Origin: a phage
Strand: one strand, 5' to 3'
Sequence record: PV357170.1
DNA: 42,358 nucleotides
Every line of letters starts with the position of its first letter. Position 1 is the stretch's first letter. The notes under the pieces were generated by a model. It was given only the letters and a program-made list of their open reading frames with translations, did no database searches and had not been told where the DNA came from. Shown piece after piece: positions 1 through 26,536 of this stretch. The position numbers and the translations under genes are program-made.

Positions 1-41
1 AAAAAAAAAAAAAGCCCCCGGCACCCGAAGGCACCAGGGGC
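1..41 (-). terminator. Rho-independent terminator after the capsid transcription unit (T7 T-phi-like position)
   Basis: Minus-strand RNA folds as a ~12-bp GC-rich stem (some G-U pairs) with UUCG loop, followed by U13 (plus-strand A13 at 1-13); lies directly 3' of the capsid gene and small ORF. Confidence 0.6.
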
Positions 42-46
42 GCATA

Positions 47-244
47 TTACTCTTTAGTTTCTGTACCAGCTGCTGCGTCGGCTACTGCATCAACAGCTTT
101 GCGGGTACGCTTAGTAGCTTTGCGGCCAGATTCGACCGAACCTACTTGAATGTGCTTCGCTACCTCGGAGGCGGCTTTTACCGCCTCACGTTGAGCAGCG
201 TTGGCCTTGAGAGTCTCCAGACCGAACACGGCGATTACTGCCAT
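47..244 (-). CDS. hypothetical small protein (65 aa) between capsid gene and terminator
   Basis: ATG at 244 preceded by GGAGG with ~5-nt spacer immediately after the capsid stop; no recognisable motif. Confidence 0.45.
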   Translation of the reverse strand: MAVIAVFGLETLKANAAQREAVKAASEVAKHIQVGSVESGRKATKRTRKAVDAVADAAAGTETKE

Positions 245-255
245 TTAACCTCCAA

Positions 256-1275
256 TCAGGCTTTGGTGGTGAAGGTGAACTTAGTCACTGCGGCGGTATC
301 TGGACGACGCAGACCGATGTTGTACATCGCGTAGCAGTCCAGAACGTTGTTGAACTCGCGCTGGTCATCCCAGATACGAGAAGTGAACGGTTTAGCTTCT
401 ACCGTCACCAAGGTCTTGGACTTACTGAAAGTCACCATGCGGCACTTCGCATCATCCTCAGTGACCGTGTAAGCTGTACCCAGCGGGTGTGTACCAGCTT
501 CGGTCGGGAACTCAGTGCACTCTACTACCGGCACACCGTTCATCTTCACAACTCGGCGGTTCTTGTAACCGTCGTCGTTAGTTGCGCCGAACTCAAGATT
601 TAACAGCTTTGGATGCTCCAGCAGTCGGGAGTAGGTATCCACGTCCACCAGAGTAATCATATCCATAAGCGGAGTCTTACGCTTGATGAGTTCATCAATA
701 CCAGCCTTGTGAGCCAGGTTGATGTTCATGGCGTTGGCTTCCATCTCAGCCTGAGTCAGCTGCTTATCCGGAGTACTGCCCGCTACGAGGATAGAAGCAC
801 CTACTTCGATACCGTCGTTGAACGCAGGCTTCAGGTGCGCTGGTGCAACCCAGGAACGGCCTTTGATGAGCTGAATCAGGTGCGCCTGGTCGAAGGTCTC
901 CGCGAACTCGGAACCGTTGTTCTGACCCATCTCAGAGAGGAAGTCCGGACCAGTCCAGTCATCCTGGTAGTCGATTGGGTTACGGATGTACAGCACCGTA
1001 TCCACTACGATAATCATCTTATCGTTACGGACCGGAGTGCTATCCAGCGCTTCACCAGAACGACGACCCTTCACCGCAGAGGTATTCAGGCGGTCGATAC
1101 GGTAGGTGTTAGAGCCGCTGATAGAGCGCTGGCTAGAGAGACCCAGGAACAGCGCCTGGTACTGGAAGCGGGTATCCACTTCATTCTGGTACACTTCCAG
1201 GTGAATATCTACGTCGGACGCCGCTCCACCCCAATGCGGACGAGTGTCACCAGCTTTATAAATGGTATCTGCCAT
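256..1275 (-). CDS. major capsid protein (T7 gp10-like)
   Basis: 339-aa ORF directly downstream of the scaffold and portal genes; size and position typical of T7-type capsid protein; strong terminator follows. Confidence 0.8.
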   Translation of the reverse strand: MADTIYKAGDTRPHWGGAASDVDIHLEVYQNEVDTRFQYQALFLGLSSQRSISGSNTYRIDRLNTSAVKGRRSGEALDSTPVRNDKMIIVVDTVLYIRNPIDYQDDWTGPDFLSEMGQNNGSEFAETFDQAHLIQLIKGRSWVAPAHLKPAFNDGIEVGASILVAGSTPDKQLTQAEMEANAMNINLAHKAGIDELIKRKTPLMDMITLVDVDTYSRLLEHPKLLNLEFGATNDDGYKNRRVVKMNGVPVVECTEFPTEAGTHPLGTAYTVTEDDAKCRMVTFSKSKTLVTVEAKPFTSRIWDDQREFNNVLDCYAMYNIGLRRPDTAAVTKFTFTTKA

Positions 1276-1299
1276 GTATTACTTTCCTTTTAAATGATA

Positions 1300-2172
1300 T
1301 TAAAGACCTACGCGTTTACCGGCTTCACGGCGTGCGAGTAAATCATGATAACGTTGACTGAACTGTTGAGATTCCAGGCTTCGGTTCCCTGCCTCCTGAC
1401 GCAGCTTAGCATACTCTACTTTGAAGTCCGCAGCGGACAAGGCATTGTTGCCAGGGACACCACGTACTAATGGATTTGAGGTCTTGATAAGACCCATATC
1501 ACGGCAGTAACCTGCCACTAACTCTGCTGCCTGTTTAAGCTCACCAGAATCAGCCAGGACTCGTGCAGCCTTACGCAGAGGCTCTGGGGCCTTGGAATTA
1601 AACAGCTGCGCTGCTACCTCCCAATTCTCCTTCCCGCCTACGAGGTCATACGCTTCCTGTACAGCCTTAGTGGCTTGTCCCACCTGGTCTTCAAGATACG
1701 CCTTAGCCAGCAGCTCTGCATACGCAGCGTGCTCACCGAAGCGCTCCTTGATGAAGGCCGTATCGATTAGGTTAGGGTCCTGATACTCCAGGGCCTTACT
1801 AAGTGCCCGCACCATGTCCGAGTCAGTTAACCCAGAGACTTGCTTCAACATCGCTACACCGGCATCAATCGTCGGGTTGCCTGTTTGAGCCAGCTCCTGA
1901 GGCTGCTCTTTGGCGCTTTCGCCACCCTTGTCATTAAGGGCCGCTTTTAGGGCTTCGATATCCAGAGGAATCTGTGCTGGAGCTACTGCCGGAACTACTG
2001 CAGGTGCAGGGGAATCTTTGCCCTGTTGCTGCTGCATAGAGATCTGCGCATCCTGCACACCCTGATTATTTGGGGCGTTAAGAGGAGCGCCCAGGCCCGG
2101 AATCTTAGGGCCGCCTTGGTTCTCTACCTGGGTAGTTGTTACGTTAGTTTGAGTGGTTTCTACGCCGTCCAT
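1300..2172 (-). CDS. scaffolding protein (assigned by position)
   Basis: 290-aa acidic, Ala/Gln-rich ORF between portal and capsid genes, as in T7 gp9. Confidence 0.55.
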   Translation of the reverse strand: MDGVETTQTNVTTTQVENQGGPKIPGLGAPLNAPNNQGVQDAQISMQQQQGKDSPAPAVVPAVAPAQIPLDIEALKAALNDKGGESAKEQPQELAQTGNPTIDAGVAMLKQVSGLTDSDMVRALSKALEYQDPNLIDTAFIKERFGEHAAYAELLAKAYLEDQVGQATKAVQEAYDLVGGKENWEVAAQLFNSKAPEPLRKAARVLADSGELKQAAELVAGYCRDMGLIKTSNPLVRGVPGNNALSAADFKVEYAKLRQEAGNRSLESQQFSQRYHDLLARREAGKRVGL

Positions 2173-2186
2173 TTATACCTCTGTTG

Positions 2187-3782
2187 TTAGCCCGGTAACA
2201 GGCCTAGTTGTTGTCCTGCTACGGTAGGATCCGCTGCCTGGAGATCTTGTACCTGCGACTGTGCTTGTGCTGCTGATGCCGCCGCTGCATTATCTTGAAC
2301 TTGCTGCTTCTCTTGCAGTTGCTCTTCTGTGAGCATGAACGGTCCACTTACAATACCGTATGCATCCAAGTACCAATCTACGCATGCATCCTCATTAAAG
2401 CGAGGAGTGAGCTGTTTGAGCACAGGAATAGCCAGCTGCATAGCCTGGGTAGCTTCTAGCAGTTTATCTGCTGCTGCTGCTTTAGCTAGTGCTGCAGTAC
2501 CTACCATCACGTTGATATCCACTACACCCTCGGTGAGGTACACCTTGAACTTAGGATACGCCACGATAGTATACAGGTACGCGAGCTTACGCAGCCAGGA
2601 GTCACTGAGGATGCTGAATCCACCACCCATAGCGTACTCTGCCTCTTTAGCATTCTGACGAATCTCATAAGCAGTTACACGCTCACCCTGTCGAGCATTG
2701 CCTGTGTACATAAACGCACGAGCCAGTTTCTGCTCAAGCATCTGAATGTCGCTAGCAATCCACTGAATCTTTTGAGCTGCACCACCCTCGTAAGCTGTTA
2801 CAGGGGACTTGGTGTTACCATTACTACCACCACCACCAACCTGTACTGCCTCACCAGTCTCGGCTTGGGAGAACTCATCCACATCCAGGCCAGAACTAGC
2901 ATCGACCATAGGGATAAGACGGGAGGCCTCAATCTCGTAGTTGGTCAACGCTTCGGTCAGCACAGACAGTCGCGCAAAGTCACCAGCGTAGTCTTCCACC
3001 AAACCGCGTCCATAGTGCTCACCGTTAACCAGGTTCCACACCAGTACGTTATACGGAAGTTCCAGCTCAGGATAGGTGCTGCTCTCGCCTAGGCGACGGC
3101 CATCAACTTCTTGATACACCTCATAGCTTACTGCTTCTTCTCCATTTGGAAGGTGCTTAATCTTACGACAAGCGGCAGTGTAGATATCAATGTCGCTGTA
3201 TGGGTCCCGGCCGTTGTAGTGTGTTCTTTGGATATCTTCTGGGAGGTCCTGGATGCTGGCGCGCTCTTTGATAATGAGTCGCAGCACGTTCCCGCTACCA
3301 TCCCTTCGAACGGTAAAGTTACGGACCGAGTAGATAATGGATTTCCCGGTTCTTTCATCGATATACTCCAATGCGTTCCCGGTGATAAGCAGCAACTTCA
3401 CAGCTTGAAGCTTAGCAGCATACCCATCCTTCTCAAACACCTTCTGAGAGGCGGTGTTCTCTACCTCGGATAAACGGGATTCCGCAGTGCTAGAACTTCC
3501 CAGACTACTAATAAAGTTGTCAAGAGCTGCACTCTTAGAGAACCGAAAGAAGCTAGTACCTTGCGGGAATAATGCACCTACAATTTTAGTCGCTGCTGTA
3601 TTGACCAGCTGAGCACCTGTACTCTGATAGTCTCGACTAAGCTGCATACGCCGCCCATCAGTATAGAGCTCTCGGGTAAAGATTGTAGGTAGCGTCCACT
3701 CAGCAAACTTCTCTGACGCATCCAGTACGCCAGCATCCTGGTCCCCCAGGAACAGTTCCGCTAATGTCTTTTTATAGTCCAA
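2187..3782 (-). CDS. portal (head-tail connector) protein
   Basis: 531-aa ORF immediately upstream of scaffold and capsid; size and position match T7 gp8-type portal. Confidence 0.75.
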   Translation of the reverse strand: MDYKKTLAELFLGDQDAGVLDASEKFAEWTLPTIFTRELYTDGRRMQLSRDYQSTGAQLVNTAATKIVGALFPQGTSFFRFSKSAALDNFISSLGSSSTAESRLSEVENTASQKVFEKDGYAAKLQAVKLLLITGNALEYIDERTGKSIIYSVRNFTVRRDGSGNVLRLIIKERASIQDLPEDIQRTHYNGRDPYSDIDIYTAACRKIKHLPNGEEAVSYEVYQEVDGRRLGESSTYPELELPYNVLVWNLVNGEHYGRGLVEDYAGDFARLSVLTEALTNYEIEASRLIPMVDASSGLDVDEFSQAETGEAVQVGGGGSNGNTKSPVTAYEGGAAQKIQWIASDIQMLEQKLARAFMYTGNARQGERVTAYEIRQNAKEAEYAMGGGFSILSDSWLRKLAYLYTIVAYPKFKVYLTEGVVDINVMVGTAALAKAAAADKLLEATQAMQLAIPVLKQLTPRFNEDACVDWYLDAYGIVSGPFMLTEEQLQEKQQVQDNAAAASAAQAQSQVQDLQAADPTVAGQQLGLLPG

Positions 3783-3791
3783 GCTTCCTCC

Positions 3792-4055
3792 TTACAGGCC
3801 CAGGGGGTTGCTCTGCCCTGCCCGTCGCCGTTTCTTCTGCTCAGACGTAATTGCATCTGCAGATGCAGAGGCCGCGCCGGAGGGGTTGATCTCAGCAATA
3901 TTGTCAGCTGCACTGTTCGCCTCTAAGGCTGCCTGCTGTTTTGCTGCCTCAGCCTGCTGCTCAGCCATGCGCTGCTGTTGCTCTAATCCTTCGTTATCAG
4001 TAAGGCCAAGCATATCCGTGGCCTTACCTAACAGTTTACCTAATCCACCGCTCAT
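3792..4055 (-). CDS. hypothetical protein, possible small virion protein (by position before portal)
   Basis: 87-aa ORF with basic C-terminus (KKRRRAGQ); same position as T7 gp6.7/gp7.3-type small virion proteins. Confidence 0.4.
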   Translation of the reverse strand: MSGGLGKLLGKATDMLGLTDNEGLEQQQRMAEQQAEAAKQQAALEANSAADNIAEINPSGAASASADAITSEQKKRRRAGQSNPLGL

Positions 4056-4519: not shown

Positions 4520-6988
4520 TTAGCAAAAGAAGAATGGAGATTCAAGCACTTGTCGGATGTCCAAAGTACCGATTGCAGGCATCTCTAAATCTGTGAGGTC
4601 TGCCCCTGCTTCGGCAGCTGCCCGGGTAATATCTCCAAGCAGATCGTGCTCCTCGTACAACTTCACAAACTGTTCACGGATATGTCGGTGCAGGGCATCT
4701 ACATCAGCCGCGTGAGTAGCCATTGAGTCGTGAATCGGGACAATATCCAGACCTTCTGCAGCACAGAGCACCATCATGAGGTGTGTGCTATCTAGGCTAT
4801 GCACAAAGTTCGGAGCAATACCGGAGGCAGCCTTGCGCTTATTACAGGTCTTAAAGTCACGGTTGTGCACCAGCACGGCAGATAGGTTCATACAATCAAT
4901 ACGTACACGCACCTCCTCTCGCTGAGAGTACCGGTTCATCACCAGCCCGCCTAGAGGAGTCTTCCACTGCAGATGCTGGCTGGCAGGTACACGCCTAGCG
5001 AGGTTCTGTAGATACCCCATAGCTGCTGCTGCTGCCGGGTTAGCTTCCTCAATAGCGCTACGCATCCTAGGGGCCAGGTAGCAGGATAAGTTCCAGAGAC
5101 TGTGCGTGTCTGTTCCTTCATACCCCTCTTCACAAGCACCTGCAAAGATGTAGTCGCTGCAGCTGCGCACCGTGGCGCTGTAGAAGTAGGTCATGCTAGG
5201 ACGCTTGGTCATGCTTCGAGTGATTTCGTTCTCTCTCCAGTACGTGCTCTGGATAACGAAATCCTCTTTGTCCAGGTCCAGTATCACCTTCTCGTCCGTA
5301 CGGCGCTTCACGTCCATATACAGGTCCGCTTTCTTGTCGTTACCCTCCCAGTACAGGTTAGTCAGGCGCCCGCCTACAGGGTCTCTCAGGAGTGCTGAGA
5401 GGTGCTGTCCACCTGAGTTCGTAGCGTCCATAGCAACCGGAGTTCTGGAGATGTACTCTTCTGGGCACGGAGAATCCAGGGCAGCCACCAGGTCGAGCAC
5501 TGCTGCCAAGAAACACCACGGTGAATCGGCCTGCTTAAAAGCGTCCGAATCAAATAGATTCTCTGCAACTGAGCGGACAACTGCCATATTTTTATCAACC
5601 CAATCTGCGCGGTCTTCGAATAGGGTTTTGTCATAACCAAAGCAAGTGGCGACGTGCACTTTGAGCCAGAACAACCCTCTCTCTCCAAGAGGTTTACCTC
5701 TACCGAATTCCAGCAGAGCCTTCTGCAAATCAGAACCCTGCGGGTGCAATGAGGACTTGAAGTACAGGCGGTAGCGCCAGTCCACACAAGTCGGGAAGTA
5801 CAGGGCTTTCTCATCTTTGAATTCCTCTGCCATCTCCAACGTAGTCAGAAGGCTGCGTAGTTGCGATACACGCTTACGGTCAGCACTGTACCACAGGGAC
5901 ATACGCGTCTTCCACTCACCGAAGCGGTCCAGTTCCTCCTCGGTGTAGTTCTCTTTTGGCACACCATCCAAGTACCACTCCGGCTTCGGCTCCGGTATTG
6001 AGCGGGGCATACCTATCCCAATACCCAGGGCCCGTGCTTCTTGCACCAGTTCCAGTATGCGCTTATTAATGCGGTATGGGGTTTCCTGCGCCTTATTAAG
6101 CGCCTTTTTGATGCCGTCCGCGGCCTTGAATGCTTCTGCTACTTCGCGGAGACGCGCGCGGTCGATGTGCGAGTTATGATAGGTCCCGCGATTGTCGATG
6201 GGAGTAAGGTACCCACCATCCCACATAGTGGTGTGCTGTACTGGTGGCACCAGCATAGGAGGCTTCATGGTTACGGTATCGGCTGACTCCACCAGTTTCT
6301 GGAAGGCCTCCATAACGTCATCAGCCGGGTAGAGCATGCTCAGGTTCCCACTACCTGTCTTCCACTGGAACAGGCCCGTCTCAAACACTGCAGCACACAG
6401 CAGACGCCCTACGGAGATGTTCTGGGCATTGGTCCAAGGCTCGTGCCCATAGTGCACGTTCTCGGCACTGGCACGGAGCGTACGCAGTATGTGCGAAGGG
6501 GACTTCGTACGGCGCTCAGTGAGGTACTCGTACACACGGTCCATGTATGCAGGGGCTACGTTACGTAACTGCAGAGCCAGTAGCTCTGACTGCACATTCC
6601 TACCCAGTGCGGACATTACTGCTTGTGCAGTCTGACGGCGACTGGCGGACTCGCCTGGGGCAACACTGAACGCCTCAAACATTGTGCACAGGCTCAGAGT
6701 AGTTAGGACATCCAAGGGGACTAAGCGTAGGAATCGGCGGTACTTTCCACCGATACCCGGGGCTTTGACATTTCGCATTTCCTCAATGGCTGCAGAGGCC
6801 ACGTCGTACGCAGAGGTTAGCATGCGCTGAGTCATTGGCAGGTTCATAATCCCGCCATTCTGCAGAGCATCGGTAATCAATTTGCGAGCACGTTCAATGC
6901 CGCGAATCTTGTAGGTCTCTTCAAGCTCCAACTGGCGTTCCACCAGTGCTTCCTCTGGTACTACAACCGTATTCAGGGCGCTAATCAT
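4520..6988 (-). CDS. single-subunit DNA-directed RNA polymerase (T7 RNAP family)
   Basis: 822-aa ORF; C-terminal region ...PNFVHSLDSTHL...IHDSMATH... matches the conserved T7 RNAP catalytic/C-terminal motifs; AAGGAGA RBS upstream of ATG at 6988. Confidence 0.9.
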   Translation of the reverse strand: MISALNTVVVPEEALVERQLELEETYKIRGIERARKLITDALQNGGIMNLPMTQRMLTSAYDVASAAIEEMRNVKAPGIGGKYRRFLRLVPLDVLTTLSLCTMFEAFSVAPGESASRRQTAQAVMSALGRNVQSELLALQLRNVAPAYMDRVYEYLTERRTKSPSHILRTLRASAENVHYGHEPWTNAQNISVGRLLCAAVFETGLFQWKTGSGNLSMLYPADDVMEAFQKLVESADTVTMKPPMLVPPVQHTTMWDGGYLTPIDNRGTYHNSHIDRARLREVAEAFKAADGIKKALNKAQETPYRINKRILELVQEARALGIGIGMPRSIPEPKPEWYLDGVPKENYTEEELDRFGEWKTRMSLWYSADRKRVSQLRSLLTTLEMAEEFKDEKALYFPTCVDWRYRLYFKSSLHPQGSDLQKALLEFGRGKPLGERGLFWLKVHVATCFGYDKTLFEDRADWVDKNMAVVRSVAENLFDSDAFKQADSPWCFLAAVLDLVAALDSPCPEEYISRTPVAMDATNSGGQHLSALLRDPVGGRLTNLYWEGNDKKADLYMDVKRRTDEKVILDLDKEDFVIQSTYWRENEITRSMTKRPSMTYFYSATVRSCSDYIFAGACEEGYEGTDTHSLWNLSCYLAPRMRSAIEEANPAAAAAMGYLQNLARRVPASQHLQWKTPLGGLVMNRYSQREEVRVRIDCMNLSAVLVHNRDFKTCNKRKAASGIAPNFVHSLDSTHLMMVLCAAEGLDIVPIHDSMATHAADVDALHRHIREQFVKLYEEHDLLGDITRAAAEAGADLTDLEMPAIGTLDIRQVLESPFFFC

Positions 6989-26065: not shown

Positions 26066-26536
26066 TTAAAACAATAAGTATTCCACTGTAGATGGAAGTT
26101 GGACACCTACTGCTACAGGCCTGTTTACTGTAATTACGCCAGCAGCGCAGGAAGCAGTATCGTTTACAGTAGCTGGATTATCTACCCATGGGCGAACGCT
26201 ATACGACTTAGTTGTATCTGCATTAGGTATAGTTAATGTTCCTGAAGTGGCCCCACTAGCAACAGCAAGTGCACCTAAGTCTACATTACCGGCAGAGTGT
26301 ACTAATACTCCGGCAGGACTAAGGCTTACAACAGTAACCCCAGAACCAATATCAGCAGGTAATGAGTAAGCACGCTGTGTCACTTTGTCATAGATGACTT
26401 TGTAACCAGCAAGCAGAGCACCCACTGAGAAGTAAACAACCTCTGATTGCTTAACTCCGAAGTGTCGAGCCACTGCTTGTTTATTAGTTAAGATTCCCGT
26501 TGAACCTTTACCATCTTGTGAGAACATTTCGTTCAT
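26066..26536 (-). CDS. hypothetical late protein (156 aa), Gly/Ala/Val/Thr-rich, encoded after the tailspike
   Basis: GAGG RBS upstream of the ATG at 26536; bracketed by a hairpin upstream and a terminator downstream; beta-rich composition resembles fibre or receptor-binding accessory proteins. Confidence 0.5.
   Translation of the reverse strand: MNEMFSQDGKGSTGILTNKQAVARHFGVKQSEVVYFSVGALLAGYKVIYDKVTQRAYSLPADIGSGVTVVSLSPAGVLVHSAGNVDLGALAVASGATSGTLTIPNADTTKSYSVRPWVDNPATVNDTASCAAGVITVNRPVAVGVQLPSTVEYLLF

Follow-up and report, generated by a model that had tools for sequence, protein, structure and literature searches.

The small gene that separates the major capsid gene from its terminator is conserved, and probably translated on its own, in KP34-like phages

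The 65-aa open reading frame (ORF) that follows the major capsid gene in the phage sequence PV357170.1 (42,358 nt; this whole stretch is referred to as the window) is a genuine gene, in all probability translated separately, carried by all KP34-like (Drulisvirus) phages. It is the orthologue of KP34 gp43, Minorna gp17 and fHe-Kpn01 gp43 (PHROG 7403, function unknown). The observation from which this analysis started is correct and ordinary: the gene, annotated in hundreds of Drulisvirus genomes, its PHROG family, the terminator behind it and a proteomics flag in one phage are all already known. As to function, the reading we prefer, with a probability of roughly 0.55, is that the capsid mRNA also yields an abundant, helical, basic late accessory protein of the head module, which attaches loosely to the particle.

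All genes of the window lie on the minus strand. The features at the end of the capsid gene are as follows.

1..13, minus strand: U13 tract of the predicted terminator, from the sequence; the window begins inside the tract
14..41, minus strand: predicted terminator hairpin with a 12-bp stem (9 G-C) and a UUCG loop; fold and scanner match
47..244, minus strand: 65-aa ORF (MAVIAVFGLETLKANAAQREAVKAASEVAKHIQVGSVESGRKATKRTRKAVDAVADAAAGTETKE), from the ORF list; ATG at 244..242, stop TAA at 49..47
245..247, minus strand: proximal TAA in the frame of the small ORF, inside the spacer, directly before the ATG
245..255, minus strand: 11-nt intercistronic spacer TTGGAGGTTAA, from the sequence, which carries the ribosome-binding site GGAGG (253..249)
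256..1275, minus strand: major capsid protein gene, 339 aa, from the ORF list; stop TGA at 258..256
281..283, minus strand: distal TAA in the −1 frame of the capsid gene, which spans the capsid codons Thr-Lys and is found in only some relatives

Every coordinate of the arrangement first described, a 65-aa ORF with a GGAGG site starting 11 nt past the capsid stop, was borne out on this strand, the GGAGG lying 4 nt ahead of the ATG. The ORF is in the −1 frame relative to the capsid gene, and the two in-frame TAA codons that had been said to block this frame are indeed there, at 283..281 and 247..245. These start signals are shared with relatives: 60 of 61 loci have a spacer of 11 nt, and TTGGAGGTT hardly varies, being kept in nearly all 63 relatives. 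An Rfam search of positions 1..1400 returned nothing at E values up to 1, which means that no known RNA element explains the region. A sigma-70-like promoter has been annotated inside the ORF in phage KP-Rio/2015; it has 3 mismatches, the scanner used here did not recover it in the window, and we do not adopt it.

The DNA of the region is 95–96% identical to that of Escherichia phage Minorna, Klebsiella phage KPV811 and Shigella phage SFN6B, all members of the genus Drulisvirus (KP34-like phages; Autographiviridae, Slopekvirinae), and by sequence similarity the window is a Drulisvirus phage genome. Its capsid protein matches PHROG 267 ‘major head protein’ (E 1e-94), the chain ‘major capsid protein gp17’ of PDB entry 23sf (E 1e-214, ∼92% identity) and HRP29 Gp37 of PDB entry 8ELD (E 4e-173). 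The edge of the window falls inside the U-run of the terminator, and the small ORF and the terminator therefore stand at the extreme end of the contig. Measured against Minorna, the window's ends lie ∼1.45 kb apart, from which we conclude that the contig broke at the T-run homopolymer of the terminator. The ∼1.45 kb absent between the ends covers the gene of tail tubular protein A, which in this group comes next after the terminator, and some 280 codons at the start of the gene of tail tubular protein B; the tail tubular protein A gene is missing as a result of the contig ending in the T-run. The IMG/VR contig L046 also ends in the T-run and several others stop a few hundred bases past the capsid gene; the variable length of the run (5–19 T in relatives) suggests a homopolymer problem in assembly or sequencing. 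At the opposite end of the window, the gene of tail tubular protein B (nozzle) is interrupted by an in-frame TAA at 42159..42161 (minus strand), a TAC (Tyr) codon in Minorna, and so appears in the ORF list as two parts, 40821..42128 and an upstream piece; either an error in sequencing or a true nonsense mutation could account for this.

The strong hairpin and U13 run, described as a terminator behind the small ORF, were confirmed by fold energy, z score and a terminator scanner. The hairpin starts five bases beyond the TAA of the small ORF, folds at −25.8 kcal/mol (z = −3.9 against dinucleotide shuffles) and is the only terminator-like site that the scanner found in positions 1..4000. Among relatives it is nearly invariant, followed by a run of 5 to 19 T. 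Eriksson et al. (2015, PMC4411677) described a Rho-independent terminator between KP34 p43 and p44, common to all members of ‘Kp34likevirus’, and the hairpin of the window matches their consensus, GCCCCTGGTGCCTTCGGGTGCC(A/G)GGGGC-Tn (their Table 3). Within the variants listed there, the window has the G form (GCCGGGGGC), as does NTUH-K2044-K1-1, and the UUCG loop of KP34, SU503 and F19. We accordingly regard the hairpin and U-tract as a predicted intrinsic (Rho-independent) terminator of the Kp34likevirus type. In some genomes (loci L040, L048 and L002, about 3700–3800, and the phages ZH5, phiHAO78-1, IME308 and Kpp-9) extra DNA follows the small ORF in place of the terminator, and in the four named phages it is annotated as an HNH homing endonuclease gene. 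The junction after the small ORF thus appears, from these sequences, to be a landing site of mobile endonuclease genes.

The protein aligns with PHROG 7403 at E 1.3e-35, residues 1–59 covering profile positions 1–59 of 60. KP34 gp43, Minorna gp17 and fHe-Kpn01 gp43 are 78–98% identical to it, belong to a length class of 60–65 aa and, as in the window, lie 11 nt past the capsid stop and ahead of the same terminator. Minorna gp17 is the same ORF, annotated ‘hypothetical protein’ along with its ribosome-binding site and terminator; the equivalent arrangement is annotated in KP-Rio/2015 and fHe-Kpn01, and KPV811 also has an annotated orthologue. Members of the family are generally labelled ‘hypothetical’ or ‘putative structural protein’. 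Two more specific labels, ‘putative transcriptional regulator’ in phage KA and ‘Capsid and scaffold protein’ among UniRef names, are without domain support and we treat them as annotation noise. The window protein belongs to a 65-aa subgroup that has an acidic tail five residues longer (...AAAGTETKE) and a TAA directly before the ATG, whereas most Klebsiella members are 60 aa long and many are without that TAA.

Searches with tblastn found the ORF in 248 phage records, nearly all of them phages of Klebsiella, Escherichia or Shigella, and a large protein collection held 203 clusters of 59–65 aa on contigs of about 43 kb; within the window itself, tblastn found no paralogue. To follow its distribution we used 80 IMG/VR loci that had been retrieved through the capsid protein rather than through the small ORF, so that the sample is not biased towards carriers. 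Every locus with a capsid identity of about 89% or more carries the ORF. Pooling the IMG/VR loci with other collected loci and the window gave 64 loci that carry it, and it is intact in 63 of these, the exception being Kpn13, where the frame is disrupted near its 5′ end. Absence from close relatives had been named as the outcome that would count against the gene; the ORF is present in them.

The 50 distinct nucleotide variants, compared pairwise by the Nei–Gojobori method, gave a dS of 0.30 and a dN of 0.039 (dN/dS ∼0.13), and variable columns are distributed 15/11/43 over codon positions 1, 2 and 3. The antisense frame is also open in 49 of the 50 variants; it is not the selected frame, since most of the variation would then fall at the antisense first position. 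By these substitution patterns the small ORF is under purifying selection.

The product is a 6.7-kDa protein with 25% Ala and a pI of 9.6. Residues 1–12 are hydrophobic (MAVIAVFGLETL) and include the conserved N terminus MAVIAxFG; residues 13–34 have a high helical hydrophobic moment; residues 35–52 hold six of the eleven basic residues (GRKATKRTRK); and the last 13 residues, the only part that varies within the genus, are acidic. AlphaFold2, run on a 29-sequence alignment, returned one continuous helix at low confidence (mean pLDDT 64), a monomer model that is uninformative on helix-turn-helix dimerisation. A low-confidence single helix of this kind is typical of polypeptides that fold only on binding or oligomerising. 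Pfam gave a sub-threshold match to DUF6894 only (E 0.21), and a sequence search of the PDB gave no meaningful match either for the protein or for a profile of 13 positional analogues (described below). A profile search of 1.84 billion representative proteins recovered a single cluster, the family's own.

Evidence at the protein level comes from the relative fHe-Kpn01; over 56 residues, its gp43 shares 89% identity with the window protein. In that phage the capsid gene g42 ends at 26300 and g43 occupies 26312–26494 (60 aa), and Spruit et al. (2020, PMC7291057) scored g43 ‘yes’ as phage-particle-associated by LC-MS/MS of purified particles (their Table S2), on the basis of at least 2 unique tryptic peptides and more than 5% coverage. 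The GenBank record likewise notes g43 as ‘verified experimentally in LC-MS/MS’. Virion mass spectrometry had been proposed as one check on the ORF, with a lack of peptides speaking against it; for this orthologue peptides exist. The same particle list comprises 29 of 56 proteins, among them the early and clearly non-structural g12, g13, g14 and g24 (PMC7291057). A peptidase and a metallophosphoesterase are among its early proteins, and the authors themselves considered that some listed proteins were ‘just carried over’ (PMC7291057). With so broad a list, the co-purification of gp43 may reflect abundance only. The suggestion that the product is possibly capsid-associated is thus upheld in one part, as the orthologue co-purifies with particles, and not in the other, as the capsid models of two relatives hold no such chain and the list it stands on includes non-structural early proteins.

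These data leave room for a second reading, the main rival and in our judgement the less likely of the two, in which a non-structural late product, for instance one that helps assembly, regulates or acts on the host, is made in abundance along with the capsid protein and only contaminates particle preparations. The early proteins on the fHe-Kpn01 list are in keeping with it, as are the absence of the small protein from the solved capsid models of relatives, its fast divergence outside the genus while the capsid protein stays 63–82% identical, and the fact that phiKMV and PhiM1 do without the ORF. Moreover, the virion atlas of the phiKMV-like phage Ar-KM gives gp37 (capsid) and gp39 (adapter) but never a gp38, a possible counterpart. 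Against this reading, the gene stands in the head operon before the terminator and has a strong ribosome-binding site, a setting typical of proteins that are needed stoichiometrically. In addition, gp43 was detected in particles, which neither the primase, helicase and DNA polymerase nor many early proteins of similarly small size were, and our Pfam and PDB sequence searches found no regulator or enzyme domain or motif. An improbable third reading is that the protein is a non-icosahedral component of the virion, either a basic helix lying with the DNA or a flexible element on the shell, in both cases invisible in averaged maps, or else, in those KP34-type relatives with an open −1 frame only, that it is occasionally fused to the capsid protein.

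How the slot behind the capsid gene is filled in other phages bears on these readings. In T7 a strong intrinsic terminator (T-phi) directly follows the capsid gene 10, and a −1 frameshift yields 10B. In phiKMV, too, the terminator comes straight after the capsid gene, with the tail tubular protein A gene next and no small ORF; to call the ORF ‘inserted’ between capsid gene and terminator, as the original prediction did, is therefore fair. In PhiM1 the capsid gene is followed by a hairpin and a tRNA-like element, and the small ORF is absent; the element, an annotated 98-nt ‘tRNA-Ile’ in the small-ORF slot (5841..5938 of our locus L083), is unusually long for a tRNA. As phiKMV and PhiM1 lack the ORF, we consider it dispensable in the wider lineage. 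Relatives with 63–82% capsid identity mostly have a small ORF in the same slot, of 42–94 aa and typically starting MA(V/L/I)(L/I); most of these products are basic and many have a K/A-rich tail. Shigella phage Buco gp38 and unnamed post-capsid ORFs of VP93-like and metagenomic phages share the slot and the N terminus MA(V/L/I)(L/I)..F/I-G with the window protein, but are 20–48% identical to it over short stretches only. The profile search of 1.84 billion representatives did not recover the Buco gp38 and VP93-like analogues, and pairwise alignments among the positional analogues are collinear from residue 1 but weak. Synteny and the short N-terminal motif are what would support homology beyond the genus. 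In seven loci with distant capsids (L074, L075, L081, L076, L080, L079 and L082) the capsid gene is followed by a hairpin with a T-rich tail and only then by the small ORF, and in at least L074, L075 and L081 a second hairpin comes after the ORF; where the terminator stands with respect to the small gene thus differs between lineages.

The comparison with T7 raises the question of a C-terminal extension of the 10B type, in which −1 frameshifting would place the small ORF on a fraction of the capsid subunits. The two systems are alike in that a strong intrinsic terminator closes the capsid unit and that extra coding sequence in the −1 frame lies just past the capsid stop. The conserved 11-nt spacer keeps the small ORF in the −1 frame relative to the capsid gene in every case, and in the KP34-type loci, which are about 30 of the 63 relatives (for example L039, L028, L072, L051, L063 and L048), no TAA precedes the ATG and the −1 frame is open for 97–139 nt back into the capsid gene. 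KP34 itself shows an extra 42-kDa band beside its 39-kDa capsid band, for which frameshifting has been speculated (PMC3082699), and this band would fit such an extension. However, the open frame is not conserved: a TAA lies directly before the ATG in the window and 17 other loci, and in others 12–13 codons upstream. Furthermore, the capsid gene of the window has no slippery heptamer of the form X XXY YYZ, and none was evident by eye at the capsid 3′ end of the one KP34-type example inspected. The conserved GGAGG and ATG would also be needless for a fused extension. A 10B-type product is consequently excluded for the window, which differs from T7 in its own ribosome-binding site and ATG, its two in-frame TAA codons and its want of a slippery site, and it is most improbable as a general explanation. 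The claim that the small ORF gives a separate product rather than a capsid extension stands on these same features together with the peptides of the fHe-Kpn01 orthologue.

A further candidate role is that of an additional, third cement protein, ordered like alpha-claw and sitting as a helix-turn-helix dimer at the two-fold axes of the capsid. The small protein is of similar size (such proteins are about 6 kDa) and predicted to be helical, and relatives do use such proteins (PMC11440229; Ar-KM preprint 10.64898/2026.05.18.726046): the capsid is decorated by alpha-claw and alpha-paw in PhiM1 (PMC11440229), by Gp48 and Gp47 in HRP29 (PDB 8ELD) and by gp55 and gp54 in the phiKMV-like Ar-KM (preprint 10.64898/2026.05.18.726046). 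Yet the window has its own genes of both kinds, directly after the large terminase gene, which match the decoration chains of 23sf and 8ELD and are the real capsid decoration genes of this phage.

29485..29667, minus strand: alpha-claw-type decoration protein, 60 aa; matches 23sf gp5 (E 2e-25) and 8ELD Gp48 (E 5e-19)
29681..30058, minus strand: alpha-paw or spike-type decoration protein, 125 aa; matches 23sf gp6 (E 2e-57) and 8ELD Gp47 (E 1e-42)

The 60-aa alpha-claw-type protein begins at an internal ATG of a 93-aa ORF in the ORF list. Although alpha-claw and alpha-paw are, like the post-capsid product, small helical proteins of this phage lineage and are associated with the T=7 capsid, they differ from it in being encoded after the large terminase gene and resolved as dimers at two-fold axes, and they are without sequence or profile similarity to it. 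When the small ORF was compared with the alpha-claw family (39 Drulisvirus members and PhiM1_47), hhalign gave probabilities of 0.1–0.6%, that is, below 1% between the two families, and BLASTP gave no match. Nor do the solved capsids hold a matching chain: the models 23sf and 8ELD comprise the capsid protein and two decoration proteins only. The phage of 23sf almost certainly encodes the small ORF, since its capsid protein is 92% identical to that of the window and every locus in that range does so. The small protein is not part of the ordered icosahedral shell in these two relatives, and a third cement protein is close to refuted. Finally, one might suspect that the ORF is open merely by chance, within untranslated sequence at the 3′ end of the capsid mRNA, since it is short and Ala-rich in a GC-rich context and its antisense frame is open in 49 of 50 variants. 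This is refuted by the dN/dS of 0.13 with variation concentrated at sense third positions, by the frame being intact in 63 of 64 loci and its ribosome-binding site and ATG being conserved, and by the peptides of fHe-Kpn01.

Returning to the preferred reading, an abundant late accessory protein of the head module, we propose the following course of events. The small ORF is the last cistron of the portal–scaffold–capsid transcription unit and lies upstream of a terminator conserved throughout the genus, so that it should share the very abundant transcript of the capsid gene. Translation of the small ORF would be started either by ribosomes coming off the capsid gene or by fresh ones; coupling or re-initiation is plausible, as the capsid stop and the ATG are separated by just 11 nt, which hold the ribosome-binding site. 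The 6.7-kDa protein may in this way be made in amounts approaching those of the capsid protein. It would be an Ala-rich helical polypeptide with a hydrophobic N terminus, an amphipathic helix, a basic patch and a variable acidic tail, and could associate with the particle without icosahedral order, as a flexible or a low-occupancy, sub-stoichiometric element on the shell. Alternatively, it might lie inside the particle with the DNA, held there through its basic segment. That the basic tail contacts DNA or the capsid is something we can only infer.

The practical value of these findings is small. If fusion to the capsid protein does occur in the KP34-type relatives, it would explain the unexplained 42-kDa band of KP34. 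More generally, phages of the KP34 group are in wide use as candidates for therapy against Klebsiella, and the late mRNA that is most abundant in them gives rise to a small basic protein.
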